Assembly: GCA_041753155.1 (NCBI GenBank)
Contig: JBGSVA010000021.1
Coordinates: 1,012 to 65,011, forward strand
Length of the DNA stretch: 64,000 bases
Source of the DNA: Thermodesulfobacteriota bacterium
GTDB lineage: Bacteria > Desulfobacterota_D > UBA1144 > Nemesobacterales > UBA2774
Reading direction: 5' to 3'
The position numbers were made by a program, and so were the translations under genes. The stretch's first letter is position 1. Every line of letters starts with the position of its first letter. Below, one piece after another: positions 49,179-64,000 of the stretch. A model generated the notes under the pieces. It was not told where the DNA came from. It saw only the letters and a list, made by a program, of their open reading frames with translations, and made no database searches.

Positions 49179-50366
49179 TCAGTAACTATTGATGAATTTC
49201 CTTATCCCTCTCACTGCCTGCATGATCCTTTTTTCGTTCTCCACGAGCGCGAGTCTCAGGTGTCCTTCCCCGTAGTTTCCAAATCCTATTCCGGGAGAGA
49301 CGGCTACCTTCGCCTTTTCTATAAGCAGTTTCGAGAATTCGAGAGACCCCATGCTCTTGAACGCCTCCGGCATCTCGGCCCATACGAACATAGTCCCCTT
49401 GGGTTTCGGTATATCCCACCCCGACTTCGACAAACCCTCCACGAGCTTGTCCCTTCTCGATTTATATAATTTCCTCACGTCCTCGACGCAGTCCTGAGGA
49501 CCGTTTAGCGCCGCGATCGCGGCTACCTGAATGGGAGTGAATATGCCGTAATCCATATAGCTCTTGATACGCTTCAGCGCCGACACTATCTTCGGGTTCC
49601 CTACCATGAATCCCACCCTCCATCCGGGCATATTGTAGCTCTTCGAGAGTGAGTAGAACTCGACGCCTATCTCCTTGGCGCCGGGGACCTGCAGGAAGCT
49701 CGGGGCCTTGTACCCGTCGAAACAGAGCTCTGCGTACGCGAAGTCGTGGACGACTATCAGCCCGGCCTCTTTCGCGATCTCATAGATGTCCTTGAAGAAC
49801 CCGAGATCGACCACGGTCGCCGTGGGGTTGTTGGGGAACGAGATCATGAGCACCTTCGGCTTGGGCCAGGTCTCTTTGACCGCTTTCTCGATCCCCTCCA
49901 GTATGTTCGAGTCTCTCGTGAACGGGACGCTGTGCACGTCCCCTCTCGAAATAATGACGGAATAGATGTGTATCGGGTATGCGGGGTTAGGAACAATAAC
50001 CGTATCACCCGGTGACAGAATGGAAAGCATAAGGTGGCATATCCCTTCCTTCGATCCAATGGTGGTAACGACTTCCGTATCGGGGTCGAGATCGACGTCG
50101 TAATTCTTTTTATACCAGCCGGCGACCGCTCTGCGGAGCTTCGGTATGCCCGCCGACGCGGAATACCTGTGGGCTCTCGGGTCCTTCGAAGCCTCTATTA
50201 ATTTCTTTACTATGTGGTCGGGCGTCGCCTGGTCCGGGTTCCCCATACCGAGGTCGATTATGTCGTCCCCCCTGGCCCTGGCTTTCGATTTTAGCTCGTT
50301 TACGATACTGAATACGTACGGCGGAAGCCGCCTGATTAATGAGAATTCTTCGGGTATATGCATCAT
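49179..50366 (-). CDS. class I aminotransferase (alanine/aspartate aminotransferase-like)
   Basis: PLP fold type I with IDLGMGNPD near the N-terminus, and [14 protein letters not shown] carrying the Lys that binds PLP. Confidence 0.8.
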
Positions 50367-50459: not shown

Positions 50460-50858
50460 ATGAATAAAAATATAAGCTTATTGTCAATCTTGCTGCTGGT
50501 AGTATTCGCCGTGCCTTTGGTTTACTCAGAGGAAGTTCGCCAGTACGGAAACGCTTCATGGTATTCGAGCTCCCTCCACGGCAGAAAGACTGCAAGCGGC
50601 GAGTGTTACGACAAGAACGAGCTTACGGGCGCCCATAGGGAGCTCCCGTTCGGGACAATAGTAAAGGTTAAGAACTTATATAATGGTAAAGAGGTAATAG
50701 TGAGGGTGAATGACAGAGGTCCGTTTATTAAGAGTCGTATAATCGACCTCTCCAGGGCGGCGGCTATTACGCTTGGGATTCTGAACCTGGGCACTGCGAG
50801 AGTCAGCGTCGAAGTGATCTCGCTGCCCGTAATCGCTGATCCGGGCTCCGCATCATAG
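50460..50858 (+). CDS. RlpA-like double-psi beta-barrel (DPBB) lytic transglycosylase-like protein
   Basis: ASWYSSSLHGRKTASGE...VRVNDRGPF is an RlpA DPBB domain with a signal peptide. Confidence 0.8.
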   Translation: MNKNISLLSILLLVVFAVPLVYSEEVRQYGNASWYSSSLHGRKTASGECYDKNELTGAHRELPFGTIVKVKNLYNGKEVIVRVNDRGPFIKSRIIDLSRAAAITLGILNLGTARVSVEVISLPVIADPGSAS

Positions 50859-50905
50859 GCGGGGTTCCTGCTCAAGCCCGTCCTCTGTCATCTCTTTTCG
50901 AGAGC

Positions 50906-51580
50906 ATGAATAATAGATTCCTTCTATTATTGTTGATTCTCCCGGTCGTTTTTTCATGCGCAAAAAAAAGTGTCGAGTCTACCCGTCCACCCGGGGAAGA
51001 GGCCCCTCCGGGAGGTTATATCGAGGAGGGCTCCATACAGGTCGGCATCGCCTCATGGTACGGGATCGAAGAGCATAACAATCACGCCGCCAGCGGCGAG
51101 CGCTTCAGCAAGCACGCATATACCGCGGCCCATAAGAGCCTTCCCTTGGGCACGGTCGTCAGGGTCACGAATATGGAGAACGGAAGGGACGTGATCGTAG
51201 AGATAAACGACAGGGGCCCCTTCGTGAAGGGCCGTATAATCGATCTTTCATATGCTCCGGCCAAGTCGATAGGCATGATCCAGCAGGGCACCGTAGAGGT
51301 CAAGGTCGAGGTCATATCGACCCCTTCCACGAGAGGGGGCAGCTATTTTCAACCCCTCTATACAGTACAGGTTGCCTCGTTCTCGGAGAAGGGGAAAGCG
51401 CTGTCCCTTAAACGCGCGCTCGACGGCGAGTACGACGACGTCAGGGTTGAGTCGATAGAGTTGAGCGGGGATAATTACTGGAGGGTAAGGGTCGGGCGGT
51501 ACGAGGACAAGCAGGACGCCGATCAAACCGCTTCGAAGCTCCGAACGGACGGGCATTACGGAAGAGTCATCATGGAATAA
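50906..51580 (+). CDS. rlpA: RlpA-like lipoprotein with C-terminal SPOR domain
   Basis: Lipobox VFSC. DPBB domain IASWYGIEEH...EINDRGPF plus a C-terminal SPOR-like YTVQVASFSEKGKALSLKRAL...WRVRVGRYEDKQDADQ. Confidence 0.8.
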   Translation: MNNRFLLLLLILPVVFSCAKKSVESTRPPGEEAPPGGYIEEGSIQVGIASWYGIEEHNNHAASGERFSKHAYTAAHKSLPLGTVVRVTNMENGRDVIVEINDRGPFVKGRIIDLSYAPAKSIGMIQQGTVEVKVEVISTPSTRGGSYFQPLYTVQVASFSEKGKALSLKRALDGEYDDVRVESIELSGDNYWRVRVGRYEDKQDADQTASKLRTDGHYGRVIME

Positions 51581-51696: not shown

Positions 51697-52566
51697 ATGA
51701 ACGGATTCGTAAAATCACACGGGCTCGGGAACGACTATTTTGTCCTGGACGGCTCCCGCATCTCTTTCGGGCTTACGCCCGCGGCCATAAGGCTCCTCTG
51801 CGACCGGAACTACGGTATCGGCTCAGACGGTATTCTGCTCCTCGTCCCCTCGGCCAGGGCTGACTTCGGCTTGAGGATTCTCAACCCCGACGGCAGCGAG
51901 GCTGAAAAGAGCGGGAACGGTCTCAGGATATTCGCCAAGTACCTTTACGAGCACGGCCACACCGATAAGAAGGAATTCAAAATCGATACCCTCGGCGGCG
52001 TAGTCACGGCCGAGCTCGATGTAAGAGAGGGAAGGGTTCCGTTCGTTACAGTGGAGATGGGGACCGCGACATTCGACAGCAGCCTGATACCTGTAAAGGG
52101 TGACGAGAGGGAGGTAGTGAACGAAGAGATGAGGATAGAAGGCGAGGTGCTCAGGTTCACGGCCGTATCGGTCGGGAACCCTCACTGCGTCGTGTTTACG
52201 GAGAACCTCGACGAGGGGTACACAAAGCTCCTCGGGCCCTTGATAGAGACCGCGGAACTCTTCCCCAACCGCACGAACGTCCAGTTCGCAAGGGTCGACT
52301 CGAGAGACAGGGTCGAGATAATGATATGGGAGCGGGGGGCAGGCTACACGCTCGCTTCGGGGAGCAGCTCGTGCGCCGTCGCGGCGGCGTGCGTAAAGAA
52401 CGGGTTTACGGACAGAGCAGTGACCGTATCCATGCCGGGCGGCGAGCTCGACATCGAAATAAGGGAGGACTGGTCTATAAAAATGAGGGGAGCGGTGGAA
52501 GAGGTCGCCTACGGCACGCTGAGCGAAGATTTGATTGAGAGGATAAAATCCCTCGGTGCGGAATGA
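51697..52566 (+). CDS. dapF: diaminopimelate epimerase
   Basis: FVKSHGLGNDYFVLD and GNPHCV active-site Cys motifs. Confidence 0.9.
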   Translation: MNGFVKSHGLGNDYFVLDGSRISFGLTPAAIRLLCDRNYGIGSDGILLLVPSARADFGLRILNPDGSEAEKSGNGLRIFAKYLYEHGHTDKKEFKIDTLGGVVTAELDVREGRVPFVTVEMGTATFDSSLIPVKGDEREVVNEEMRIEGEVLRFTAVSVGNPHCVVFTENLDEGYTKLLGPLIETAELFPNRTNVQFARVDSRDRVEIMIWERGAGYTLASGSSSCAVAAACVKNGFTDRAVTVSMPGGELDIEIREDWSIKMRGAVEEVAYGTLSEDLIERIKSLGAE

Positions 52567-52631: not shown

Positions 52632-53882
52632 ATGGGAAAGCTGATACTGACTGCCGAAACGGTCCTGCCTGTTTCCTCGAAACCTTTGAAAAACGCTTCC
52701 GTACTGATCTCCGGCGGAAAGATCAGAGAGATCGGCAAATCCGCCGCGCTCAGGAAACGCTATAAAGGCGTGATCGAAAGGGATTTAGGAAACGGAATAC
52801 TCCTGCCGGGGTTCGTCAATGCCCATACACATCTCGAGCTCGGATGGATGTTAAGGAGGCTCCGCAGCTTCGGGGGCTTTACGGGCTGGCTCGGGCAGAT
52901 AATAAAGGAAAAGAGGGCGGGTGTGGCGGACGGTGAAATAGCCGAGTCGGTGGAGGAAGGAATAAGAACGAACATACGCTCGGGGGTTACGACCGTAGGG
53001 GAGATATCCTCGTACGGCGGTATAGATATACCGCTACTTAAATCGTCGGGGCTGAGGACTGTGCTCTTCAGAGAAATCCTCGACAGCAATGAAGGTGCCG
53101 CGGATTTCTCGTCTCTCGAAAAAGGGGCGCTCTTCGAGGAGAGGCTCTTCCCGCATTCACCCTATTCGTGCAGTCCCGGGGTGCTGAAAAAATCGCTCAG
53201 GTCTCACAGGAAAAACGGCGTCCCCCTCGGTATCCACCTCGCGGAGAGCGCGGATGAGGTGAGGTTCCTGAGGGGTGAAGTAAACAATATAGAAAAGAAG
53301 ATATTCCCGCTTATAAACAAGGCCCCCTTTAAAAAGCATTCGGCAGACACGCCTGTCTCATATTTAAGGAGAGCGGGCCTCTTAGACGGCGTGAGGATTA
53401 CACTCGTTCACATGGTGCAGGTGAGCGGGGAAGAGGCGCGGGAGCTCTGCGAGCTCGACGCGGCTATCGTCCTTTGCCCGAGGAGCAATTTTTTTCTTCA
53501 GGTGGGCGCCCCGCCCGTAAAGGAATATGCGAAGTTCAACAGGATGGGTATCGGCACGGACGGCCTATCAAGCAACTACAACCTCAATTTTTTTGAAGAG
53601 ATGAGGTTCCTCCATCTCCTCATGTCGCAGTCCGAGGGGCAGCGGGCGGCATATGTTACCGTATACGCTGCGACACTCGGGGGGGCAAGGGCGCTGTACA
53701 TTGAGGATAAGACCGGCAGCATTGAGCCCGGCAAAGAGGCCGACCTGATATTCCTCAAAAACGGCAGCGGATCGGGCGACCCTTACCTCTCGGTCATTTC
53801 ATCAGACGCGCGGGACGTCGGAATGGTCATGGTCCGGGGTAATATTATATATGCCGGGAATGCCGCGCGCCCCGGCAAATAG
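52632..53882 (+). CDS. amidohydrolase, ATZ/TRZ (nucleoside/aminofutalosine deaminase-like) family
   Basis: PGFVNAHTHLEL metal-binding motif. About 416 aa. Confidence 0.7.
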   Translation: MGKLILTAETVLPVSSKPLKNASVLISGGKIREIGKSAALRKRYKGVIERDLGNGILLPGFVNAHTHLELGWMLRRLRSFGGFTGWLGQIIKEKRAGVADGEIAESVEEGIRTNIRSGVTTVGEISSYGGIDIPLLKSSGLRTVLFREILDSNEGAADFSSLEKGALFEERLFPHSPYSCSPGVLKKSLRSHRKNGVPLGIHLAESADEVRFLRGEVNNIEKKIFPLINKAPFKKHSADTPVSYLRRAGLLDGVRITLVHMVQVSGEEARELCELDAAIVLCPRSNFFLQVGAPPVKEYAKFNRMGIGTDGLSSNYNLNFFEEMRFLHLLMSQSEGQRAAYVTVYAATLGGARALYIEDKTGSIEPGKEADLIFLKNGSGSGDPYLSVISSDARDVGMVMVRGNIIYAGNAARPGK

Positions 53883-53884
53883 CT

Positions 53885-54931
53885 ATGTCCGGCAAGATCA
53901 ATAAAATCTTCGTCTACGGGACGCTCCAGCGCGGGGAAGAGAGGAGTGGCTTCATGCGGGGCTGCAAGCTCTCGGAGATACTCGAAGTGCCGGGAAGGCT
54001 CTACGATACGGGACAGGGTTACCCGGCCGCTATATTCAACGACGGATCGGACCGGGCAGTGTCGGGCGAGCTCTATACCATGGAAGACCCGCCTTCCAAG
54101 CTCGAAGAGCTCGACAGGGTCGAGAGGACTCTATCCGGGTTCTTCGTAAGGTCGAGGATCAAATGCCCCCATTCGGAATTTTATTGCTACGAGGCGGGAC
54201 CGCTTCTGAAAGAAACAGCTACCGACCGGAACAGGATCATAAGCGGGAGCTGGAGGACGCACTCCTCGCTCGCATACACCGACCCGGTAGATTTCGCACT
54301 CAGGTTCGAGACGCACTTAAAAGACAGTTACAGGGAGCATCCGGGCGAAGACTCGGATGGGATACATTATATAAGGGGACGCGTCCCGGTCTTGGTCACG
54401 GCGCCCCACGCGACGGCGCACGTGCGAATGGGCAAATTGAAGAGGCAGGAATTCTATACGGGCGCGCTCGCCGTCCTCCTTCATTCGGTGACGGGGTGTC
54501 ATGCGCTCTACGTCGGCCGGCTGTCTTCACTCGACCCTAATTACACGGACGAATCCCCGTTCAAAGCGAAGCTATCCGAGATAGCCGGGAGAATCGGGCT
54601 CGAATTTCTGATCGACGTTCACGGGACCGGTTCGGAAAGGCCCGGGGACGTCTTTCCGGGCGTAGGCACGAACGGCGAGTTCCTGAACGGCAGGCCCGGA
54701 TCATTCGGCGAGCTCGGTCAGGCGGCCCAATCGAACGGCATCTCGCTCGGGCCTACGGATGTCTTCCCCGCGGCGAGGCAGATGACAGTGACAAGGTTTG
54801 CAGCTACCAAACTGAGCATACCCTCTATGCAGCTCGAAATAAACCGGAACCTGAGGCGGCCCGAAACTGAGCCCGGGGATTTCATAAAGCTCGTAAATTT
54901 TCTCAAGGACTTTATCGGGCGACTTTGTTGA
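53885..54931 (+). CDS. two-domain protein: N-terminal gamma-glutamylcyclotransferase (AIG2/GGCT)-like, C-terminal N-formylglutamate-amidohydrolase (FGase)-like
   Basis: The N-terminus IFVYGTLQRGE...GELY is a GGCT signature. The C-terminus has VLVTAPHAT and LIDVHGTG, resembling the FGase motifs (SCEHA / IDLHSM). The start lies 3 nt after the upstream stop. Confidence 0.5.
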   Translation: MSGKINKIFVYGTLQRGEERSGFMRGCKLSEILEVPGRLYDTGQGYPAAIFNDGSDRAVSGELYTMEDPPSKLEELDRVERTLSGFFVRSRIKCPHSEFYCYEAGPLLKETATDRNRIISGSWRTHSSLAYTDPVDFALRFETHLKDSYREHPGEDSDGIHYIRGRVPVLVTAPHATAHVRMGKLKRQEFYTGALAVLLHSVTGCHALYVGRLSSLDPNYTDESPFKAKLSEIAGRIGLEFLIDVHGTGSERPGDVFPGVGTNGEFLNGRPGSFGELGQAAQSNGISLGPTDVFPAARQMTVTRFAATKLSIPSMQLEINRNLRRPETEPGDFIKLVNFLKDFIGRLC

Positions 54932-57809
54932 TACGGCTTGCCAGTATCTCCGCCAGGTGTTTTACGCTCCTGCCAGTGAAGTGCTCAATTTGATGCCTGC
55001 ACGATACGCCCGAGACTGCGATGACCGTCTCGGGAGAGGATTTTCTCACGGCGGGGAATAAACGGTCTTCGCCTATGGTCTTCGATACCCCGTAGTGCTC
55101 TCTCTCGTAGCCGAAGCTGCCCGCCATCCCGCAGCACCCGGCCCCGCTCTCTTCGGCCTTGCATCCGGCGGCGGCGAGTATGCCGAGCGGGGCCTCAATC
55201 CCCGTGAGCGACCTCTCGTGGCAGTGCGCGTGATAGAGGATTTCGGGGGCGTCCCCACGCCATTCTATATTTAGACCTCTCTCCCGGTCCACGCGGTGCA
55301 GGAACTCTCCGATCAGAAATGAATTCCCGGCGAGTATCCGGGCGTCTTCGTTTCCGGGCAGGAGGTCCATGTACTCGTCCCTGAATGTGAGTATGCAGCT
55401 CGGCTCGGTGCCGACGACGGGAATACCTTCTCTCACGTAAGGCGAGAGTAACGAGACGTTCTTTCGCGCCATCTCCCTCGCGGGCTCGATTGCGCCCTTA
55501 CTCAGCATGGGCCGCCCGCAGCAGGCCCTTCGCCGTTCAAGCAATACCTCGTATCCGGCTGCCTCCAGAAGCTCGACGGCCGACTTCCCGACCTCCGGAT
55601 GATAGTACGTTACCCATGTGTCGTGAAAGAAGACTACTTTTTTGTCGGATGTTTTGCGGTTTTTTTTCCTTCCGTAAAACCATCCAGTGAAATTTTCTCC
55701 AGTCAGCTTTGGCAGTGTGCGCTCGGGGTGAATACCGATGCGTGAGAGCAGGAGTTTCGTCACCGGGTTCCCGATCAGGGCGTTCGAGAGCCGGGGGGCG
55801 AGCGAAGCGATGCGGCTCGCCTCGTGGACGTCCGAGAAAAAACGGTCCCTCGCGCTCATGCCGTGCTCTTCGTGATAATGGGAGAGGAACTCGGTCTTCA
55901 TCTTGGCGGCGTCCACCTTCGACGGGCACTCCGTCTTGCAAGCCTTGCACGATATGCACAGGTCGAAGACCCCGTACATCTCCCTGCCGGCGAGCGAATC
56001 CCTGTCGAGCGCGCCCGAGAGCACGGCTCTGAGTGCATTGGCGCGCGCCCTCGTCGAGTCCCTCTCGTCGCGGGTAGCCATGTAGGAAGGGCACATTATT
56101 CCCTCTCCGAGCTTCCTGCAGACGCCCTGGCCGTTACACATCCCGACCGCCTGAGAAAAGCCGAGGTCTTGAGACCAGTCGAGCCTGGTCCTGATTTCAT
56201 AGGGTTCGCTCCTGTCTCCGTACCTGAGGTCCTCGAGCGGGCCCCCGGGGTCTACGACCTTCCCCGGATTGAATATGCCCTCGGGATCGAACGCCGCCTT
56301 TAGCTCCCGCATTACGCCGTATAGCTCGTGCCCGAACAGTTTTTCGTTGAGATAACTCCTCTGTCTCCCGTCCCCGTGCTCGCCGCTCATCACGCCCCCG
56401 TACCTGACGGCAAGCTCGAAGGCTCCGTCCATTAGCTCCTTCATCATGAGTACGCCCTTTCCCGTTTTCAGGTTCACGAGGGGCCTTATGTGCAGGCAGC
56501 CCGCGCTCGCGTGCCCGTAAAATCCGGCGGTCGTCCCGAGGCGCTTGATTAATTCCGACACGTCGCGCACATATTCGGGGAGACTTCCGACCGGTACGGA
56601 CACGTCCTCTATGCACGGTATGGGCTTGTGCTCGTCCCTCCTGCTCATCATTATGCCGAGCCCCGCCCTCCTCACTCCCCATACGTTTGACTGCTCCTCA
56701 CTGCCGAGTGCGAAATTAATACTGCACCCGGCCCCTCTTTCCCTTAATGACGAAGCGAGGCCCCGGGCCTTTCCTTTTACCTCTGCTTCGCTACCTCCGT
56801 AGAATTCCACTGCGAGAATGGCTTCGGGCTCTCCTTCGACGAAGGAGAGCATCTTGCTATACCCCGCGTGGGCCCTCGTCAGACCGACGAGCATCGCGTC
56901 TATCAGCTCTACCGCTGACGGGCCGTGCCCGAGAATCCCGGGGACGGTCTCCATCGCTGAAATAATGCTCCCGAACTGCAGTATTACGAGTCCCGTGTGA
57001 GCGGGCCTCGGCACGAGCGTCAAAGTGAATTCGGTAACTACACCGAGAGTGCCCTCCGATCCCGCGAGCAGCTTTGCCGGATTAAATGGGGATTCGAGAA
57101 AATAGTTGAGACTGTATCCGGACGCCCTCCTCCAGTGCTTCGGAAAATCACGCCTTATCGCTTCCGAATATTTTTCACGCAGCGCGGTGAGATTCTTAAA
57201 CAGACGCCCCGCGGGCCCGCTCTCCTTCGCCCGCGCGAGGAGGGCGTCCTCACCGAGGGCGCCGAGCTCGACGGGACTTCCGTCAAGCAGAATTTTTGCC
57301 GCCCCGACGTTGTCCCCCGCCATGCCGTAGAGGATCGAATGCGCCCCCGTGGCATTATTGCCGACGACCCCTCCCGCTGTCGCGATCCTCGCCGTGGACG
57401 GGTCCGGTCCGAACATCAGCCCCGAGGGCTTAAGCCTTCGGTTGAGCTGCTCTATATATATTCCCGGCTGTACACGGGCGGTTTTGGCTTCCGGATTTAT
57501 TTCGATGACACCGTTCAGGTACTTCGAGAAATCTATGACCAGCGCGTCTCCGACCGCCTGCCCAGCAAGGCTCGTGCCCCCGCCCCTCGGCAGTATCGCG
57601 ACCCCGAGCCGCCGGGCGGTTTCGGCGGCGATAGATACGTCCTCTACCGTCCGCGGTATGACGACGCCCACGGGCTCTATCTCGTAATTGCTCGCGTCCG
57701 TACTGTAGAGCGCCCTGCTCATCTGATCGAAGCGGACTTCGCCCTTTATGGTCTTCTTGAGCGAGGCTTCGAGCTCTGATAGCGAGCTATTCCCGGCGGT
57801 TCTAGGCAT
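54912..57809 (-). CDS. YdiJ-like FAD-linked oxidase fused to Fe-S/CCG domains (GlcD+GlcF-like)
   Basis: 965 aa with an N-terminal PCMH-type FAD-binding domain, a central CISCKACKTECP ferredoxin motif, and C-terminal Cys-rich CCG repeats. Confidence 0.7.
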   Translation of the reverse strand: MPRTAGNSSLSELEASLKKTIKGEVRFDQMSRALYSTDASNYEIEPVGVVIPRTVEDVSIAAETARRLGVAILPRGGGTSLAGQAVGDALVIDFSKYLNGVIEINPEAKTARVQPGIYIEQLNRRLKPSGLMFGPDPSTARIATAGGVVGNNATGAHSILYGMAGDNVGAAKILLDGSPVELGALGEDALLARAKESGPAGRLFKNLTALREKYSEAIRRDFPKHWRRASGYSLNYFLESPFNPAKLLAGSEGTLGVVTEFTLTLVPRPAHTGLVILQFGSIISAMETVPGILGHGPSAVELIDAMLVGLTRAHAGYSKMLSFVEGEPEAILAVEFYGGSEAEVKGKARGLASSLRERGAGCSINFALGSEEQSNVWGVRRAGLGIMMSRRDEHKPIPCIEDVSVPVGSLPEYVRDVSELIKRLGTTAGFYGHASAGCLHIRPLVNLKTGKGVLMMKELMDGAFELAVRYGGVMSGEHGDGRQRSYLNEKLFGHELYGVMRELKAAFDPEGIFNPGKVVDPGGPLEDLRYGDRSEPYEIRTRLDWSQDLGFSQAVGMCNGQGVCRKLGEGIMCPSYMATRDERDSTRARANALRAVLSGALDRDSLAGREMYGVFDLCISCKACKTECPSKVDAAKMKTEFLSHYHEEHGMSARDRFFSDVHEASRIASLAPRLSNALIGNPVTKLLLSRIGIHPERTLPKLTGENFTGWFYGRKKNRKTSDKKVVFFHDTWVTYYHPEVGKSAVELLEAAGYEVLLERRRACCGRPMLSKGAIEPAREMARKNVSLLSPYVREGIPVVGTEPSCILTFRDEYMDLLPGNEDARILAGNSFLIGEFLHRVDRERGLNIEWRGDAPEILYHAHCHERSLTGIEAPLGILAAAGCKAEESGAGCCGMAGSFGYEREHYGVSKTIGEDRLFPAVRKSSPETVIAVSGVSCRHQIEHFTGRSVKHLAEILASRINKVAR

Positions 57810-57992
57810 AGGCCCGATTAGTATAACTTGACGGCGGGTGAAATATACAACTCCCGGCCCTCTGGTCCCTCTCGCGCGGGGCGGGGTTCCGACTATTACA
57901 GACTTTAAAAAAATACTGGTATCATAAACTGATTTTTATGGGCCCAGCGTTATAGTGCGCGCCGTCTATATCCGGGCGCCGAAAGACTTTAT

Positions 57993-58646
57993 ATGAAATT
58001 TGCTATCGTTCCCGTAAAAGACCTCTCGAAAGCGAAGGAAAGGCTGTCCTCAGTCCTGCCTCAGGACGTCAGGACCGACCTCGCCTACGCGATGCTCGAG
58101 GACGTGCTCACCGCGCTCAAGGGCTCTAGGCTCCTCGACAGGATATTTATCGTGACCATGGACAGGAATGCGATAAGGATAGCCGGGGAGATAGGGATCG
58201 AAATCATAGAAGAGACAGAGCAGAAGGGCGAAAGCGACTCCGTCGACCGGGCGTCCCGAATCTGCATGGAGATGGGGGCCGGATCCGTGCTCGTTATTCC
58301 GGGCGACGCCCCGCTCATAACCTCTCAGGACATCGATTTCATCGCGGGAAAGGAAACGGCCCCTCCCTCGGTGGTACTCGTCCCGGCGAGAGACATGCTG
58401 GGCACGAACGCTATACTCAGAAACCCGCCCGACGCCATCCCGTCCCGGTTCGGCCACGACAGTTTCAGGAAGCACATCGAAGAGGCGGAGAAGAAGGGCA
58501 TACGATTAGAGTATTACGAGAACGAAAGGGTAGGGCTCGATATCGACCACCCGGACGATCTGAAAATATTCGCTTCGGAAAAGAGCGGTACGAGGACCTA
58601 CGAATTACTATTGAGAAAAAATATACTCAGCAAGATAAGCGAATAA
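57993..58646 (+). CDS. CofC/FbiD-like nucleotidyltransferase (2-phospho-L-lactate guanylyltransferase family)
   Basis: MKFAIVPVKDLSKAKERLSSVL matches the CofC N-terminal motif (AVIPxKxxxAKSRL). 217 aa, MobA-like fold. Confidence 0.5.
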   Translation: MKFAIVPVKDLSKAKERLSSVLPQDVRTDLAYAMLEDVLTALKGSRLLDRIFIVTMDRNAIRIAGEIGIEIIEETEQKGESDSVDRASRICMEMGAGSVLVIPGDAPLITSQDIDFIAGKETAPPSVVLVPARDMLGTNAILRNPPDAIPSRFGHDSFRKHIEEAEKKGIRLEYYENERVGLDIDHPDDLKIFASEKSGTRTYELLLRKNILSKISE

Positions 58647-58671
58647 TACGTTACTGTTTCTTACCGTCCGC

Positions 58672-60105
58672 CTAGTAATTCAGGTTGACTACCAATAGTT
58701 TTAATTCAGTCATCTCCTCGATCGCATACCGGACCCCTTCCTTCCCGACGCCCGAGTCCTTAACCCCGCCGTACGGCATGTTCTCGACCCTGAAGCTCGG
58801 GTAGTCGTTCACGACGACCCCTCCCACGTCGAGGGCGGCATAGGCCTTGAATGCCTTCTTGATGTCCTTCGTGAATACTCCGGCCTGAAGACCGTAACGA
58901 GAGTCGTTTACGGCTTTGAGAGCGTCGTCGAAATCCCTGTACCTCTCCACATGAACCACGGGCCCGAATACCTCACTCTTGCTGACGTCGCATCCGGGAG
59001 GCACGTCCGTCAGTATCGCGGGCTCGATGAGAGAGCCGTCCCTGTTCCCGCCTGAAAGGAGCCTAGCTCCCCTTCCGACGGCGTCCTCTATCCATTCCAT
59101 GATCCTGTCCGCCGACTGAGCGTCTATGACGGGCCCCACGTCCGTGTCTTCGAGCATCGGGTCGCCCAGCCTGAGCTTTCTCGTCTCTTCGACGAATTTG
59201 CTTATGAACCTGTCGAATGTCTTTTCATGCACGTACATCCTCTGCACGGATATGCAGCTTTGACCGGCCTGGTAAAATGCCCCCCACGCGTTCCTGCTCG
59301 CGGCGAAATCGAGGTCGGGCGGGTCTTCGTCGATAATAGTCGCCGCGTTCCCGCCTAACTCGAGCGTGACCTTCTTCTTCGGGTGCTTCCTTTTAAGCTC
59401 CCACCCTATGGCGTCGCTCCCGGTGAACGAGACCTTCTTCACCCTCACGTCGTCTATCACGGCCTCAATCTCCGACCCCGGCACGGGCAAAATATTCAGC
59501 AGTCCGTCGGGAAGCCCGGCCTCGCAGACGACCTCCCCCAGCATCAGCGCCGAGAGCGGCGTCTGGGATGCGGGCTTGAGCAACATTACATTCCCCGATG
59601 CTATAGACGGCGCGACTTTATGGGCGACGAGGTTGAGAGGGAAGTTGAAAGGGGATATGCCGACGACGACACCTAAGGGGAAACGTCTCGCGATCCCGAA
59701 CATCCCTTCGTTCCCCGGCGCAATGTCTATGGGGACCAGCTCTCCTTCGGAGATCCTGTTCGCCTCCTCCGCAGCCACGGAGAACGTGGTCACTGCACGG
59801 CCCACCTCGACCCTGGCCGTTTTCAGAGGCTTCCCGCCTTCGAGCACGAGGGTCTTGGCAAATTCCTCCTTCCTTCCCGCAATACCTTCCGCTATTTTTC
59901 TCAATATACGGCTCCGCTCAAAGCTCGGGCTCTCTCTCCATTTCTCGTACGCGCTCTCGGCCGTGCCTATAGAGCCTATAGCGGTCTCACGGTCGGGGAT
60001 ATTGATTATCCCCGCCGTCTCTCCGTTATAAGGGCTTTTTATCTCCCTTTTCCTTTTGCTCTTCGTCCACTTACCGTTTATTAGGAATCCGTATTCTTTG
60101 GGCAT
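58672..60105 (-). CDS. NAD(P)-dependent aldehyde dehydrogenase
   Basis: 477 aa with the ELGGNA catalytic Glu region and the FTGS Rossmann motif. Confidence 0.85.
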   Translation of the reverse strand: MPKEYGFLINGKWTKSKRKREIKSPYNGETAGIINIPDRETAIGSIGTAESAYEKWRESPSFERSRILRKIAEGIAGRKEEFAKTLVLEGGKPLKTARVEVGRAVTTFSVAAEEANRISEGELVPIDIAPGNEGMFGIARRFPLGVVVGISPFNFPLNLVAHKVAPSIASGNVMLLKPASQTPLSALMLGEVVCEAGLPDGLLNILPVPGSEIEAVIDDVRVKKVSFTGSDAIGWELKRKHPKKKVTLELGGNAATIIDEDPPDLDFAASRNAWGAFYQAGQSCISVQRMYVHEKTFDRFISKFVEETRKLRLGDPMLEDTDVGPVIDAQSADRIMEWIEDAVGRGARLLSGGNRDGSLIEPAILTDVPPGCDVSKSEVFGPVVHVERYRDFDDALKAVNDSRYGLQAGVFTKDIKKAFKAYAALDVGGVVVNDYPSFRVENMPYGGVKDSGVGKEGVRYAIEEMTELKLLVVNLNY

Positions 60106-60227: not shown

Positions 60228-61061
60228 CTAGGCTTCCAGTATGTCGAGCCTCGGCTCTTCTTTTATGATCCCTTTATCGTAAGCCCTGTTAAATAGATAC
60301 TTGAGCGCGGCCTTCCCTTTCCCCCCGAGGTCCAGCGTGTATTTGTTGACGTACATCAGGACGAATTTCTCTCCCACGTCCTCGCCTATGCCCCTGCCGT
60401 ATTTCATCGCATATTCGAGAGCTTCTTTTTTGTGGGCGAGTCCGTACTCGATGCTCTCCTTATGTACCCTGAGGACTTCTTTCTGAAGCTCCTCTCCAAT
60501 GTCCCTCTTAACGACGTTAAGTCCTAGTGGGAGCGGGAGCGTGGTCTCAATTTGCCACTGCTCGCCCAGATCGAGCACAAGCTCGAGGTCGTAGTCCTTG
60601 TAAGTAAGCTGTCCCTCGTGGATGATGAGGCCGGTCTCAATGTCGCCCCTCGCGACTGCGGGCATTATCTCGTCGAAAGGCATCTCCACCGGTATAAAGC
60701 CGTCTGAGTAAATGCTCAGGAGCAGGAACGCGGTCGTGAGCTTCCCGGGGACACCTATCTCCTTCCCATTGAGGTCGTCGGTCGGCACGCTCGATACCAC
60801 GATAGGGCCGTACCCCTCTCCCATGCTCGCGCCGCAGGACATGATTCTGTAATCGTCCTGTACTTTCAGATATCCGTGCGCGGAGATCGCGGTAGTTTCA
60901 AGCTCTTTATTGAGCGCGCGCTTGTTCAGGGATTGAATGTCCTCTATGACGTGCTCGAAATCGATTTTGTCCGAAGTCACTTTGCCTGAGGCTATGCCGT
61001 AAAACATGAAAGCGTCGTCGGGGTCGGGGCTGTGTCCGAGTCTCATCTTTATCTTGGTCAA
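60228..61061 (-). CDS. mqnD: 1,4-dihydroxy-6-naphthoate synthase (futalosine pathway)
   Basis: LGHSPDPDDAFMFYG and GLIIHEGQLTY closely match MqnD (LGFSPCPNDTFIFY / GLIIHESRFTY). Confidence 0.75.
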   Translation of the reverse strand: MTKIKMRLGHSPDPDDAFMFYGIASGKVTSDKIDFEHVIEDIQSLNKRALNKELETTAISAHGYLKVQDDYRIMSCGASMGEGYGPIVVSSVPTDDLNGKEIGVPGKLTTAFLLLSIYSDGFIPVEMPFDEIMPAVARGDIETGLIIHEGQLTYKDYDLELVLDLGEQWQIETTLPLPLGLNVVKRDIGEELQKEVLRVHKESIEYGLAHKKEALEYAMKYGRGIGEDVGEKFVLMYVNKYTLDLGGKGKAALKYLFNRAYDKGIIKEEPRLDILEA

Positions 61062-61085
61062 TCTGCGTCCTCCAGTTTCTTCAAG

Positions 61086-61892
61086 CTATTGTGAATATAA
61101 TTTTATGCGGGAAATCTTTTCTGCCTCGCCGAGCCGGGAGAGGTATTCGCTGTATCTGCCGATCGCTTCGATCTCCTTTTCACCGAGGTCATACTTTATC
61201 CTTTCTGTTAAATATTTATGGCACATGCCCTCATCGATTCCCGTCCTCATCGATTCGAGCTTTGCTATTTTACCCACTATGCCGAGCCCGTAGTCTTTGG
61301 ATTTATGGAGCGCGTCCAGGTTCCGTCCGAGCTCCACGCCTTCGTTTACGGCGAAGACGGCATACACAAACGGGAGCCCGGTCTCTCCGGTCCAGATCTC
61401 CCCGAGGTCATAAACGTCATAGCCCACGGGAGGGGAGTAGGTCGTCTCGAGGCCGGTGTCGCCAATTATCATCCCCGCATCGACGTCTTCCAGGAAATCA
61501 CCGTCCGCGGCCCGCGGCAGATAGACCGGCGAAAGGCTATGGAATGTTTCGAGTATTATCCTCAATAGTGCAGTCGAGCTCTGCGACCTCCTGTCGACGG
61601 CGACCCTCTTAATGTCCGTGATCTCGCCCTTCGACAGGAGCACGACACTGTCCACCTTCCCGTAAGAAGAGATAGAGATTCCGGGTACCGCGGAGTACGA
61701 GTTTCTCCTGAGGAATTCCGCGACGGGTATGAGCCCCAAGTCTATCGCTTTTCCGGAGAGCATCAGCGAGAGATCGGAAGGGGGCGTTAGCGTTATATCG
61801 AAGTCGTGTTCTACGAGACCGTTCTCGATCGCGAACGTCAGGGGTTTTGCATTCATAAACGATACCGAGCCCAGCTTTATCAATCTTTGCAT
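61086..61892 (-). CDS. mqnA: chorismate dehydratase (futalosine pathway)
   Basis: The KLGSVSFMNAKPL...IDLGLIPVAEF layout matches MqnA. It is tandem with mqnD. Confidence 0.65.
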   Translation of the reverse strand: MQRLIKLGSVSFMNAKPLTFAIENGLVEHDFDITLTPPSDLSLMLSGKAIDLGLIPVAEFLRRNSYSAVPGISISSYGKVDSVVLLSKGEITDIKRVAVDRRSQSSTALLRIILETFHSLSPVYLPRAADGDFLEDVDAGMIIGDTGLETTYSPPVGYDVYDLGEIWTGETGLPFVYAVFAVNEGVELGRNLDALHKSKDYGLGIVGKIAKLESMRTGIDEGMCHKYLTERIKYDLGEKEIEAIGRYSEYLSRLGEAEKISRIKLYSQ

Positions 61893-61997: not shown

Positions 61998-63047
61998 TTA
62001 AAATGTGCTCAAATCTCCCTGCCATCTCCTGGGGAGGAATATGCTTTCGTACATGCTTATTGCGTATGAATCGGTCATACCCGCGATGAAATCGCAGACC
62101 GTGCGCTCGATGGTTTCCCCTTCCCTCACGCCCTTATTATAATGCTTACGAAGCTCGCTCTCGTTTTCGCAGAAATACTGGTACAGCTCTCTGATTACCT
62201 TATTGGCCTTAAGAAAGTTGTTCTTTATCTTTTCGTTCATATATACGGTATTGAAGAGGTAGCCCCTCAGCTCCACCATCGCCTGCTCGACTTCGGCGCT
62301 CGACGCCACCTTCTCGCCTTCGAACTTCAGTGTTTCCGTGATTATATCGGTGACCATTCTGTTGATCCTTTCGGAATTCGTCCTGCCGAGGGCGTCGACG
62401 CATTCTTTCGGGACGTCGTCTATGGTAATGATCCCCGCCCTTATCGCGTCGTCGAGGTCGTGGTTCGCGTAGGCGACGAGGTCCGATATCCTGACGACCT
62501 GGCCTTCGAGTGTCTCCGGTCGGTATTTGGGGTTATCGACCGCTCCCATTCCCTTAGAATGCTTGGCTATGCCGTCCCTCACCTCGTAAGTGAGGTTGAG
62601 TCCCTTCCCGCCCTTCTCCAGCACGTCCACGACCCTCAGGCTGTGTATCACGTGCTTGAACCCTCCGGGGTATATCTCGTTGAGCGCCGCCTCCCCCGCG
62701 TGCCCGAACGGTGTATGGCCGAGGTCGTGCCCGAGCGCTATAGCCTCCGTGAGGTCTTCGTTTAATCTGAGCGCCTTCGATATCGTCCTCGCTATCTGGG
62801 ACACCTCGATGACATGAGTGAGCCTCGTCCTGTAATGGTCGTCCGTCGGGGATAAAAAGACCTGCGTCTTGTGCTTCATCCTCCGAAACGATTTCGAATG
62901 GATTATCCTGTCCCTGTCCCTCTGGTAATCCGTCCTTATGGAGCAGGGCTCCTCGGGAACCATCCTGCCCTTGGTCCCGGCGCTTAGAGCCGCATAGGGC
63001 GAAAGGATTTGTCTCTCGATCTCTTCCGACTGTTCTCTTATGTTCAT
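61998..63047 (-). CDS. dGTP triphosphohydrolase-like HD-domain protein
   Basis: RTRLTHVIEVSQIAR...GHDLGHTPFGHAGE HD motifs. Confidence 0.8.
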   Translation of the reverse strand: MNIREQSEEIERQILSPYAALSAGTKGRMVPEEPCSIRTDYQRDRDRIIHSKSFRRMKHKTQVFLSPTDDHYRTRLTHVIEVSQIARTISKALRLNEDLTEAIALGHDLGHTPFGHAGEAALNEIYPGGFKHVIHSLRVVDVLEKGGKGLNLTYEVRDGIAKHSKGMGAVDNPKYRPETLEGQVVRISDLVAYANHDLDDAIRAGIITIDDVPKECVDALGRTNSERINRMVTDIITETLKFEGEKVASSAEVEQAMVELRGYLFNTVYMNEKIKNNFLKANKVIRELYQYFCENESELRKHYNKGVREGETIERTVCDFIAGMTDSYAISMYESIFLPRRWQGDLSTF

Positions 63048-63081
63048 TCAGTCACCCCGCCCCGCGTCAGCGGCACGCCAC

Positions 63082-63843
63082 TCAGAGCCTCACCGATATG
63101 CCCTTCGAGCTCATGAACTCCTTCGCATCCCTTATAGTATGCTCCCCGTAGTGGAATATCGAAGCGACGAGCACCGCGTCCGCCTCCCCGTCACTCACCC
63201 CTTCCGAGAGGTGGTCGAGGCTGCCTGCGCCTCCGGAAGCGATGACCGGTATGGATACCGTCCGGGATACGGCCTTCGTGAGCGCTATATCGTAGCCCGA
63301 CTTGGTCCCGTCCTTATCCATGCTCGTGAGCAGTATCTCGCCTGCGCCGTATTCCTCCATCTCCTTCGCCCATTCGAGGGCGTCTATGCCCGTCGGGTTT
63401 CTCCCGCCGTGCGTATAGACCTCCCATTTCCCTTCCGAGACGCGCCTCGCGTCTATCGCCACAACGATGCACTGGCTCCCGAACCTCTCGGACGCCCTCT
63501 TCACGAAATCCGGGTCCTTCACCGCGGCCGTGTTTATCGATACCTTGTCGGCCCCCGCAAGGAGGAGCTGCCTCACGTCTTCTATAGTCCTCACCCCTCC
63601 TCCGACGGTCAGAGGGACGAATACCTCGGCTGCGGTCCTTTCCACGACGTCGACCATCGTCTTCCTCTCCTCGTGGGAAGCCGTTATGTCGAGGAAGCAG
63701 ATTTCGTCGGCCCCCTCGTCGCTGTATTTCTTCGCTATCTCGACCGGGTCGCCCGCGTCTCTCAGGTTAACGAAGTTAACACCCTTCACGACCCTCCCGT
63801 CCTTGACGTCGAGGCATGGGATTATTCTCTTCGACAGCATCAC
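63082..63843 (-). CDS. hisF: imidazole glycerol phosphate synthase cyclase subunit
   Basis: [20 protein letters not shown] is the canonical HisF start. The likely start is the ATG at 63840. Confidence 0.9.
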
Positions 63844-64000
63844 GAGTACCTTTCTATAGCGTCTTTAAGGTTTATTGTGCCTGTATAGATCGACTTCCCG
63901 AGTATCACGCCGTATAGGCCTATTTGTTCGAGCGTTTTCAATTTATCCAGGTCGTCTGTGGTTGCGATACCCCCGGACGCGATGACCGGAAGCGGGGACG
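63840..64000 (-). CDS. hisA: HisA (ProFAR isomerase), C-terminal end (gene continues beyond window)
   Basis: The reverse-strand frame ends ...[48 protein letters not shown]. Its stop overlaps the hisF start. Confidence 0.7.

Follow-up and report, generated by a model that had tools for sequence, protein, structure and literature searches.

The window analysed here (the whole 64,000-nt stretch of DNA) carries, on its forward strand, the genes for a diaminopimelate epimerase (dapF; 51697-52566, 289 aa), a metal-dependent, deaminase-like amidohydrolase of the cog0402 type (52632-53882, 416 aa) and a 348-aa protein (53885-54931) in which a GGACT-like domain is fused to a divergent domain resembling the metallo-amidohydrolases of the FGase/PghP superfamily. 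This arrangement raises two questions: what a protein joining these two domains might do, and whether it acts together with the products of the genes that precede it.

Layout and distribution of the operon

The dapF stop codon and the amidohydrolase ATG were separated by 65 nt. The amidohydrolase TAG ended at position 53882 and the ATG of the fusion gene lay at 53885, leaving a spacer of 2 nt ('TAGCTATG'). This layout agrees with a preliminary description of the locus, which placed the amidohydrolase start after dapF and the start of the 348-aa ORF 3 nt past the amidohydrolase stop; the three motifs it listed were also present, YGTLQRGE at residues 11-18, VLVTAPHAT at 169-177 and LIDVHGTG at 242-249. 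DapF scored 243.1 bits against TIGR00652 (equivalog cutoff 114.65) and matched Pfam DAP_epimerase at 5.7e-56, while the amidohydrolase matched Pfam Amidohydro_1 at 9e-44. Full-length homologs of the fusion protein numbered 141, and the order dapF, amidohydrolase, fusion gene was repeated in 30 independent loci. The trio therefore consists of real genes rather than chance ORFs. With a score beyond the equivalog cutoff and slow evolution (65-95% identity), dapF fits a housekeeping biosynthetic gene.

All 30 loci belonged to a single lineage, the candidate phylum Dadabacteria. The amidohydrolase and fusion genes were at most 19 nt apart in 28 of them, with the stop and start overlapping or nearly abutting in 24, and this tight, often overlapping spacing persisted down to 40% identity. 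Wherever the upstream sequence could be read, dapF lay immediately 5′ of the amidohydrolase gene, the sole exception being L029, in which the amidohydrolase-fusion pair was relocated together to a new context lacking dapF. In one further locus, L031, a 3.2-kb insertion separated the pair. The mqnA and mqnD genes previously noted nearby correspond to two PF02621 paralogs (MqnA/MqnD family; Pfam VitK2_biosynth, 252 and 166 bits) on the reverse strand at 60228-61061 and 61086-61892, convergent to the trio and 5.3 kb from it; in an NCBIfam scan, the distant genes of the window that were sampled proved to be housekeeping genes, with no further mqn gene among them. The intervening block (54912-60105, outside the feature) contained, by Pfam, FAD-oxidase/CCG (-), CofC (+) and aldehyde dehydrogenase (-) genes. 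It comes between the trio and the mqn genes only in the window lineage; deep-branching loci lack it, and the PF02621 genes are immediately next to the fusion gene in L003, L025, L027, L028, L031 and L032. The mqnA/mqnD pair is thus likely to be the ancestral neighbour of the trio. The pair of amidohydrolase and fusion gene, in most cases with dapF in front and probably first located beside mqnA/mqnD, is a Dadabacteria-specific operon. The two genes are presumably co-transcribed and probably translationally coupled.

The divergence of the amidohydrolase correlated with that of the fusion protein (r = 0.97), but no more closely than either did with that of DapF (0.97-0.98 for all pairs), which reflects phylogeny rather than co-evolution. 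The best 120 amidohydrolase homologs listed were same-clade proteins only, so outgroup gene contexts were not obtained from them. Further, standalone GGACT genes in other phyla had no FGase-like or amidohydrolase neighbour in any of 53 loci, and hence gene neighbourhoods lend no independent support to a GGACT/FGase-like partnership. The trio might therefore be an inherited arrangement without joint function, made up of a housekeeping dapF, a nucleoside or aminofutalosine deaminase and a separate enzyme for gamma-glutamyl processing. The confinement of all loci to one lineage, the identities tracking phylogeny and the failure of either the amidohydrolase/FGase-like or the GGACT/FGase-like pairing to recur in other phyla are in keeping with this, as is the lack of any chemistry linking an adenine-type deaminase to glutamyl amides. 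The spacing conserved at such low identity, and a pair that stayed together on relocation in L029, are harder to reconcile with it, leaving this explanation a serious one that falls somewhat short of probable. It is compatible with the function proposed below for the fusion protein itself.

The two domains of the fusion protein

The AF2 model of the 348-aa protein was of high confidence (pLDDT 93.1, pTM 0.92), and fold searches identified both domains. Residues 1 to ~127 (53885-54265) have the GGACT/AIG2-type gamma-glutamyl cyclotransferase fold. PF06094 was matched with 57.3 bits (cutoff 22.8) over residues 8-124, covering 119 of the 120 profile positions; the suggestion that the N-terminal half is GGCT-like thus held for both profile and fold. 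The A1 profile matched YkqA (1e-10) and YtfP (4.5e-8), as well as mouse and human GGACT. The YGTL loop occupies residues 11-14 (YGTLQRGE, nt 53915-53938). In the profile alignment, E80 of the LDRVE segment (nt 54110-54124) aligned with the mouse GGACT motif LDDFE, which holds the catalytic E82; in 3jub and 3jud, the latter an E82Q entry, this residue fell just outside the aligned stretch. Among 38 homologs, conservation of E80 was 90% or more. The N-domain thus resembles GGACT, YtfP and YkqA (PF06094; 3juc, 1xhs, 2qik) in its fold, its YGTL loop and its catalytic Glu (E80, corresponding to E82 of GGACT), although identity is only about 20-28% and none of the solved relatives found has an FGase-like partner domain. 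These matches predict a gamma-glutamyl cyclotransferase of the GGACT type, in which YGTL forms the substrate loop and E80 is the catalytic residue.

Residues 128-348 (54266-54931) were assigned by fold and by transitive searches. The C-domain has the fold of the solved FGase members 2q7s and 2odf. Neither the full protein (E ≤ 0.1) nor its C-terminal half (E ≤ 10) matched PF05013 (gathering threshold 28.9 bits), and the fusion protein did not match PF05908 (threshold 22 bits) either; NCBIfam, phmmer and the A1/A2 profiles likewise gave no family assignment for this domain, the two profiles finding no FGase chain among PDB sequences. However, four of the relatives that match the C-domain profile (1e-32 to 1e-40) score above the PF05013 threshold (P0298, 36.8 bits; P0350, 33.1; P0263, 29.8; P0281, 29.0), and relatives 30-39% identical carry precomputed PF05013 assignments. 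P0281 alone approached PF05908, with 20.2 bits, below the threshold. Through these intermediates the C-domain belongs to the FGase superfamily by traceable homology. The resemblance to FGase put forward in the preliminary description is therefore borne out by the fold and at the level of the superfamily, but not by a direct PF05013 match.

Three segments were strongly conserved among 132 distant relatives. In VLVTAPHAT...KLKRQE (54389-54451), H175 and an acidic residue (D or E) at position 189 were present in all 132, R181 in 129 and K or R at position 186 (K186 here) in 127; H179, a possible alternative ligand, was conserved in only 89. In LIDVHGTG (54608-54631), H246 was invariant and D244 was found in 131; in MQLEINR (54827-54847), E318 was invariant and Q316 was found in 130. 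In the AF2 model LIDVHGTG lies inside a predicted strand (241-248), and E318 near the C-terminal end of another (314-320). The Zn ligands of PghL are near strand ends, and PghL Glu165 and CPA Glu270 are near C-terminal strand ends (PMC6506827). In the secondary structure of the model, H175, D/E189, H246 and E318 fall at the kinds of place expected of a Zn site built from His, Glu and His, with a distal catalytic Glu close to a strand end. H175, E189 and H246 are the predicted metal ligands, and E318 the predicted catalytic base.

The C-domain is a divergent member of the FGase/poly-gamma-glutamate-hydrolase branch of the Zn-carboxypeptidase-like fold. It differs from HutG and the FGase family (PF05013; 2q7s, 2odf), whose fold it shares without matching their profile, in lying outside any hut operon and being joined to GGACT. 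It also differs from PghP and PghL (YndL; PF05908; 3a9l, 5onj): PF05908 is not matched, the first two predicted ligands are 14 residues apart (H175-E189) rather than five (PghL His41-Glu46), and PghP and PghL are phage-derived secreted depolymerases, whereas the fusion protein is predicted to be cytoplasmic and has a cyclotransferase attached.

Clustered at 50% identity, the large C-domain family comes to about 1,390 clusters. Most of it escapes Pfam and NCBIfam, and public names are either 'hypothetical' or 'N-formylglutamate amidohydrolase'. It sits between the FGase and poly-gamma-glutamate hydrolase families. Its relatives were found beside GGT, peptide transporter and gamma-PGA or capsule synthesis genes, some of them in Opp/Dpp-type peptide-uptake operons, while others were wall-anchored through SLH domains; an enolase-superfamily (MR_MLE) gene lay near one, L090. 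None of these settings suits N-formylglutamate hydrolysis, and the public label is probably wrong. However, the relatives with such contexts are only 30-39% identical, and their gamma-glutamyl setting may not transfer to the window protein. A metagenome scan for standalone relatives yielded a single subfamily, the Sporomusa type, which had no conserved neighbour (the commonest ORF cluster occurred in at most 6 of 38 loci), and is therefore uninformative on context.

The upstream amidohydrolase

The preliminary description suggested that the amidohydrolase could be the futalosine-pathway deaminase. Its best NCBIfam family was indeed NF006269 (aminofutalosine deaminase), aligned over the full length (protein 5-377, model 3-376 of 408), and it has mqn neighbours, but the score of 219 bits was below the cutoff of 320. 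The second-best score (159 bits) was to an MTA/SAH deaminase model, and HutF models reached 72 bits in a partial alignment. Among PDB sequences the best match was 3v7p/4m51 (118 bits), followed closely by MTA/SAH and other deaminases (105-94 bits); 7lkj, named 'Aminofutalosine deaminase', scored 93.5. 3v7p corresponds to Nis_0429, and 2imr to DR_0824, an aminofutalosine deaminase. The catalytic set H65-x-H67, H202-x-x-E205, H260 and D310 aligned with 3v7p, and the Ser mutated in 4m51 was also present. Automated names of the homologs were split between aminodeoxyfutalosine deaminase and MTA/SAH deaminase. The protein is thus like the aminofutalosine deaminases (NF006269, 7lkj, 3v7p, 2imr) in its best matches, its HxH/HxxE/H/D set and its mqnA/mqnD neighbours, but is set apart by the sub-cutoff score and by MTA/SAH deaminases being nearly as close in the PDB. 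It most resembles aminofutalosine or adenosine-type deaminases, and is a candidate aminofutalosine or 5′-substituted adenosine deaminase.

Its futalosine-pathway company, namely the two PF02621 genes that adjoin the operon in deep lineages, might suggest that the fusion protein itself serves menaquinone synthesis, as an unrecognised step or as a replacement for MqnB (futalosine hydrolase), with the deaminase and MqnA/MqnD. In those lineages the mqnA/mqnD paralogs are immediate convergent neighbours, the best matches of the amidohydrolase are aminofutalosine deaminases, and Foldseek listed PNP/MTAN-fold enzymes for the fusion protein, including futalosine hydrolase 4bmz (E 8e-4). We nevertheless consider such a role highly improbable.

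In histidine catabolism, formiminoglutamate deiminase (HutF), which belongs to the same amidohydrolase subgroup, acts ahead of the N-formylglutamate amidohydrolase HutG and supplies it. In a similar pathway the amidohydrolase would deaminate or deiminate a precursor, the N-acyl-glutamyl product would undergo FGase-like hydrolysis and GGACT would finish the process. The HutF-HutG pair likewise consists of a cog0402-type amidohydrolase followed by an FGase-superfamily hydrolase, and in Dadabacteria the pair is the conserved core of the operon, tightly spaced in nearly all loci and moved jointly in L029. HutF models were among the NCBIfam matches, but the amidohydrolase is far nearer to the aminofutalosine and MTA/SAH deaminases. 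Further, no hutH, hutU, hutI or hutF was found within ~10 kb in the window or the 30 related loci, the fusion has an extra GGACT domain, an insertion splits the pair in L031, and no amidohydrolase gene was seen beside any of the seven standalone relatives examined. A pathway of this kind is therefore rather unlikely.

Possible roles of the fusion protein

We propose, with moderate confidence, that the fusion protein is a bifunctional cytoplasmic enzyme whose domains work one after the other on a glutamyl amide, encoded beside a deaminase-type amidohydrolase. The likeliest such substrates would be gamma-glutamyl peptides and N-blocked gamma-glutamyl amines. The C-domain, as a metallo-amidohydrolase, would cleave an amide bond at a glutamate, whether to take off an N-acyl or peptidyl group or to shorten a chain of gamma-glutamyl residues. 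This would leave a gamma-glutamyl unit whose alpha-amine is free. The GGACT domain would turn that unit into 5-oxoproline and free the attached amine or amino acid. The metal binding, substrate class, order of reactions and functional link to the amidohydrolase are all inferred. The coupled, nucleoside-deaminase-like amidohydrolase is not explained by this gamma-glutamyl chemistry, which counts against the proposal.

A narrower form of the proposal is the recycling of peptidoglycan stem peptides. Acting on L-Ala-gamma-D-Glu-meso-DAP or gamma-D-Glu-mDAP, the C-domain would strip the N-terminal residue or cut at D-Glu, after which cyclisation of the gamma-glutamyl unit by GGACT would release meso-DAP; such a product would link the enzyme to dapF, almost always directly 5′ of the pair. 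Two RlpA-like lytic transglycosylase genes (one with SPOR) and a DapL/AlaT-like aminotransferase gene lie just upstream in the window lineage, and the peptide-uptake operons, SLH anchors and MR_MLE gene of the relatives also point in this direction. Peptidoglycan degradation or recycling has been predicted phylum-wide for Dadabacteria (PMC8115339). However, DapF looks like a housekeeping biosynthetic enzyme, the deep lineages L003, L005, L025 and L027 lack both the RlpA and the aminotransferase neighbours, and in L029 the pair survives without dapF. The deaminase-like amidohydrolase has no part in the scheme. Further, the stem peptide contains D-Glu, while characterised GGACT and GGCT enzymes act on L-gamma-glutamyl substrates. 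Recycling of this kind is accordingly unlikely, if less so than the HutF/HutG-like pathway.

Returning to the broader proposal, the pair might also form one Dadabacteria-specific pathway (deaminase, glutamyl-amide hydrolase and cyclotransferase) acting on a gamma-glutamylated or N-acyl-glutamyl metabolite, possibly one bearing an amino-heterocycle; the conserved neighbours suggest a possible connection with menaquinone (futalosine) or diaminopimelate metabolism. We regard this extension as improbable.

A search of the literature found no description of a GGCT/GGACT-FGase fusion. Seen only in Dadabacteria, the fusion protein is a modestly novel, uncharacterised enzyme rather than a new type of system. 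Gamma-glutamyl chemistry recurs around the C-domain family, in the form of GGT, of genes for capsule synthesis and for peptide uptake and, in this case, of the cyclotransferase joined to it, and the Dadabacteria fusion offers a Rosetta-stone hint to its substrate class. It is also a compact, confidently modelled target for learning the role of bacterial GGACT/YtfP-type proteins. If the pair and its deaminase do form a pathway, this would be a new metabolism in an uncultured phylum; if they do not, the gain would be a better annotation of the C-domain and caution in naming the deaminase.

Gene order and conservation of the operon

ORF calling placed the three genes, as the preliminary description had it, on one strand (+): dapF at 51697-52566 (243 bits on the TIGR00652 equivalog model, whose cutoff is 115), a clear Amidohydro_1 protein gene at 52632-53882, and the 348-aa fusion ORF at 53885-54931. 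The motifs quoted from the 348-aa protein were also present (residues 11-18, 169-177 and 242-249). A gap of 65 nt separates dapF from the amidohydrolase gene, and 2 nt (TAG-CT-ATG) lie between the stop of the latter and the fusion start; the gene order is that of an ordinary operon. Two genes of the PF02621 (MqnA/MqnD) family, identified with Pfam, are found at 60228-61892 on the opposite strand (-). Close homologs bearing names, and the records of matching loci, belong to Candidatus Dadabacteria or 'Thermodesulfobacteriota' MAGs.

The trio is parted from the mqn genes, in the window lineage only, by a three-gene block (54912-60105) that is a later insertion. Its genes encode a FAD-linked oxidase with Fe-S/CCG domains (-), a CofC-like 2-phospho-L-lactate guanylyltransferase (+) and an aldehyde dehydrogenase (-); together they could supply F420 biosynthesis with lactate or 2-phospholactate. 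The oxidase gene is convergent with the fusion gene and overlaps it by 20 nt (54912-54931). Just upstream of dapF (50460-51580) is a tandem pair of RlpA-like (DPBB_1) lytic transglycosylase genes, of which the second also encodes a SPOR peptidoglycan-binding domain; the pair is preceded by an aminotransferase gene (49179-50366, -) scoring just below the cutoffs for both alanine transaminase (640/647 bits) and LL-DAP aminotransferase (598/648 bits). A 282-aa ORF at 63040-63888 (+), adjoining the HD/HD_assoc gene, had no Pfam match and no NCBIfam match at E≤1e-40. Deep-branching Dadabacteria loci have weakly similar sequences (tblastn, 20-39% identity) at the corresponding place next to the mqn-HD cluster; in one such locus (L003) the genes called there are of His_biosynth type, so the prediction of this ORF may need checking.

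A scan of one genome per species (185,579 species) identified 27 loci with the full-length fusion, a count based on a specific C-domain pattern that leaves out distant C-domain relatives; all were in Dadabacteria, 'Thermodesulfobacteriota' or unclassified delta-proteobacterial MAGs. The remaining 53 retained loci had the GGACT part only. When an N-domain HMM was run over all distant C-domain relatives, GGACT was detected in the Dadabacteria clade only; the fusion therefore seems to have arisen once.

The amidohydrolase gene lay immediately upstream of the fusion gene in 28 of 30 loci (spacer -23 to +19 nt), with stop and start overlapping or at most 2 nt apart in 24. The sole large break, in one Dadabacteria lineage (L031, 4805-7863), is a 3.2-kb insertion carrying, on the other strand, a CNNM/CBS transporter gene and a gene for a 583-aa 'choice-of-anchor I' protein. 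In L029 the pair is 336 nt apart, in an unrelated context lacking dapF and mqn genes; dapF was upstream in all other loci with readable upstream sequence. The fusion gene of deep-branching loci (40-49% identity of the fusion) has the two mqn genes and an HD-domain gene as its immediate, convergent neighbours. The adjacency in 28 loci, and the persistence of the pair in L029, indicate that the amidohydrolase and the fusion form the conserved core, beside which dapF and mqnA/mqnD have long been located.

The upstream amidohydrolase

The amidohydrolase had been suggested as a possible futalosine-pathway deaminase. In favour of this, its best NCBIfam model was the aminofutalosine deaminase family (full-length, 219 bits; next-best model, 159 bits), and its best PDB sequence match (118 bits) was 3v7p/4m51, which we take to be Nitratiruptor Nis_0429, reportedly characterised by Goble et al. 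in 2013. It also matched 7lkj, an 'aminofutalosine deaminase' (93.5 bits), and 2imr (77 bits), and it keeps the HxH, HxxE, H and D catalytic residues plus the Ser mutated in 4m51. However, the family score falls short of the curated cutoff of 320, MTA/SAH-type deaminases in the PDB score nearly as high, and automated JGI naming calls some homologs aminodeoxyfutalosine deaminase and others MTA/SAH deaminase. The mqn genes nearby make an aminofutalosine or 5'-substituted-adenosine deaminase the preferred identity, and a somewhat probable one.

Intermediates of the futalosine pathway are not known to have an amide bond, and no chemical link was seen between aminofutalosine/adenosine-type deamination and glutamyl amide hydrolysis. 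That the fusion protein itself acts in this pathway (enzymes listed in PMC13280913), or replaces MqnB, is highly improbable.

The two domains of the fusion protein

Pfam GGACT (PF06094) covers residues 8-124 (57.3 bits; cutoff 22.8), and a profile of 38 homologs matched the PDB sequences of Bacillus subtilis YkqA, Escherichia coli YtfP, and mouse and human GGACT. The invariant YGTL loop is accompanied by a near-invariant E80 (in LDRVE), which aligns with the GGACT LDDFE motif bearing the catalytic E82 (PDB entry 3jud is the E82Q mutant). Conservation of these elements suggests that the N-domain is catalytically intact. Public annotation names the protein 'gamma-glutamylcyclotransferase' only.

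The preliminary description likened the C-terminal half to N-formylglutamate amidohydrolase (FGase). The window protein itself is not detected as a PF05013 member; its membership of the superfamily was established transitively, since intermediates pass the Pfam threshold of 28.9 bits (P0298, 36.8; P0350, 33.1; P0263, 29.8; P0281, 29.0) and standalone relatives sharing 30-39% identity with the window C-domain bear precomputed PF05013 matches. P0281 also scores 20.2 bits on PF05908 (poly-gamma-glutamate hydrolase). Both domains belong to known superfamilies.

Searching 1.84 billion representative proteins with a C-domain-only profile gave 1,390 matching clusters at E≤1e-3, of which 935 reached E≤1e-10. 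Among the best 150 matches, 91 were standalone proteins of about 220 aa, the remainder including tandem duplications (P0261, P0269, P0296 and P0313 have two domains), SLH-domain fusions, and proteins of 600-690 aa whose C-terminal extension is of unknown type. Twelve proteins of a 590-690-aa class (P0283, P0289, P0292, P0315, P0316, P0336, P0345, P0361, P0366, P0370, P0375 and P0388) carry an N-terminal FGase-like domain followed by an extension of ~400 aa with weak, sub-threshold CDC48_N-like Pfam matches only. Relatives are mostly named 'hypothetical protein' and occasionally 'N-formylglutamate amidohydrolase'. The subfamily lies between the FGase and gamma-PGA hydrolase families and is essentially uncovered by Pfam and NCBIfam.

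Across 132 distant relatives aligned with an HMM, H175, H246 and E318 were invariant, position 189 was always Asp or Glu, and R181, D217, N219, D244, Q316, K186 and K227 were nearly invariant. In the structure model, H175 follows a predicted strand (167-173), H246 lies within another (241-248) and E318 is near the end of a third (314-320). These predicted positions resemble those in the poly-gamma-glutamate hydrolase PghL, whose Zn ligands His41, Glu46 and His102 lie near strand ends and whose Glu165, the equivalent of CPA Glu270, ends beta-7 (PMC6506827). From these residues and their placement we infer that the C-domain is a working metallo-amidohydrolase, with H175, E189 and H246 as predicted metal ligands and E318 as predicted catalytic base.

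Gene contexts and proposed function

Seven contexts of standalone relatives were inspected. In Oceanobacillus, Alteribacillus and Paenibacillus, the FGase-like gene shares an operon with an M20 peptidase, an Opp/Dpp-type peptide ABC transporter and gamma-glutamyltranspeptidase (GGT), with a C26 gene near one and glutamate dehydrogenase near another. The Cytobacillus gene comes after capB-like Mur ligase, capC, small-ORF and GGT genes in what appears to be a poly-gamma-glutamate capsule operon; that of Niallia lies upstream of a Mur-ligase-like and an ATP-grasp gene, and that of a Clostridia MAG downstream of genes for peptide-transporter ATPases, an MlrC-type peptidase and an alpha/beta hydrolase. 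Nothing could be learned from the Sporomusa context. The Cytobacillus locus (sp. FJAT-54145; L138, 2332-6936), in which the small ORF encodes 64 aa, the FGase-like protein has 311 aa and a Peptidase_C39_2 gene follows, appears to be a capsule locus with a candidate new depolymerase; a capA-sized gene was not called there.

At least five representatives are SLH-anchored; their extracellular, wall-bound placement does not fit an N-formylglutamate amidohydrolase. An M24 peptidase gene overlaps the fusion gene in L029. Taken with the nearest two structural families that have been characterised (hydrolases of N-acyl-glutamate and of gamma-glutamyl-glutamate), these contexts and anchors point to glutamyl amide bonds as the substrate class, especially gamma-glutamyl peptides or polymers. 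The joining to a gamma-glutamyl cyclotransferase fits this theme.

A GGACT-type enzyme requires a free alpha-amine on the gamma-glutamyl unit, which suggests a chemical logic for the FGase-like partner: a deacylase of FGase type, or a trimming hydrolase, would expose the amine, and the cyclotransferase would then act on the unit. With about even confidence, we propose that the fusion is a bifunctional enzyme that breaks down gamma-glutamyl or N-acyl-glutamyl amides in two successive reactions, its gene being presumably co-transcribed with the deaminase gene. Peptidoglycan stem peptide as the specific substrate would agree with dapF and the RlpA/SPOR neighbours, with the Opp contexts and SLH anchors of relatives, and with the peptidoglycan-recycling lifestyle predicted for the Dadabacteria phylum (PMC8115339); it is nevertheless unlikely, in view of the D-Glu stereochemistry and the loss of such neighbours in deep lineages. 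A HutF/HutG-like two-step pathway formed by the amidohydrolase and the fusion is more doubtful still. That the operon is an inherited arrangement of functionally unrelated genes is a reasonable, if tentative, alternative, and is compatible with a two-step glutamyl amidase reading of the fusion protein itself.

Elsewhere in the window (18576-21382, -), a gene for AmmeMemoRadiSam system protein B (MEMO1-like) adjoins a hydantoinase-B/oxoprolinase-family gene (caprolactamase beta-like, 262 bits), 32 kb from the trio; an alpha subunit was not identified. Should the latter gene be part of an ATP-dependent 5-oxoprolinase, it could serve to recycle the 5-oxoproline that a GGACT-type enzyme would release.

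Among the papers searched, none describes a GGACT/GGCT fusion to an FGase-like domain; the architecture is new and was found in one candidate phylum only. New, too, is that its C-domain represents a large subfamily lying essentially outside Pfam and NCBIfam. The consistent occurrence of the C-domain subfamily alongside gamma-glutamyl chemistry is likewise a new observation, and the fusion is worthwhile for enzyme-function discovery and annotation.
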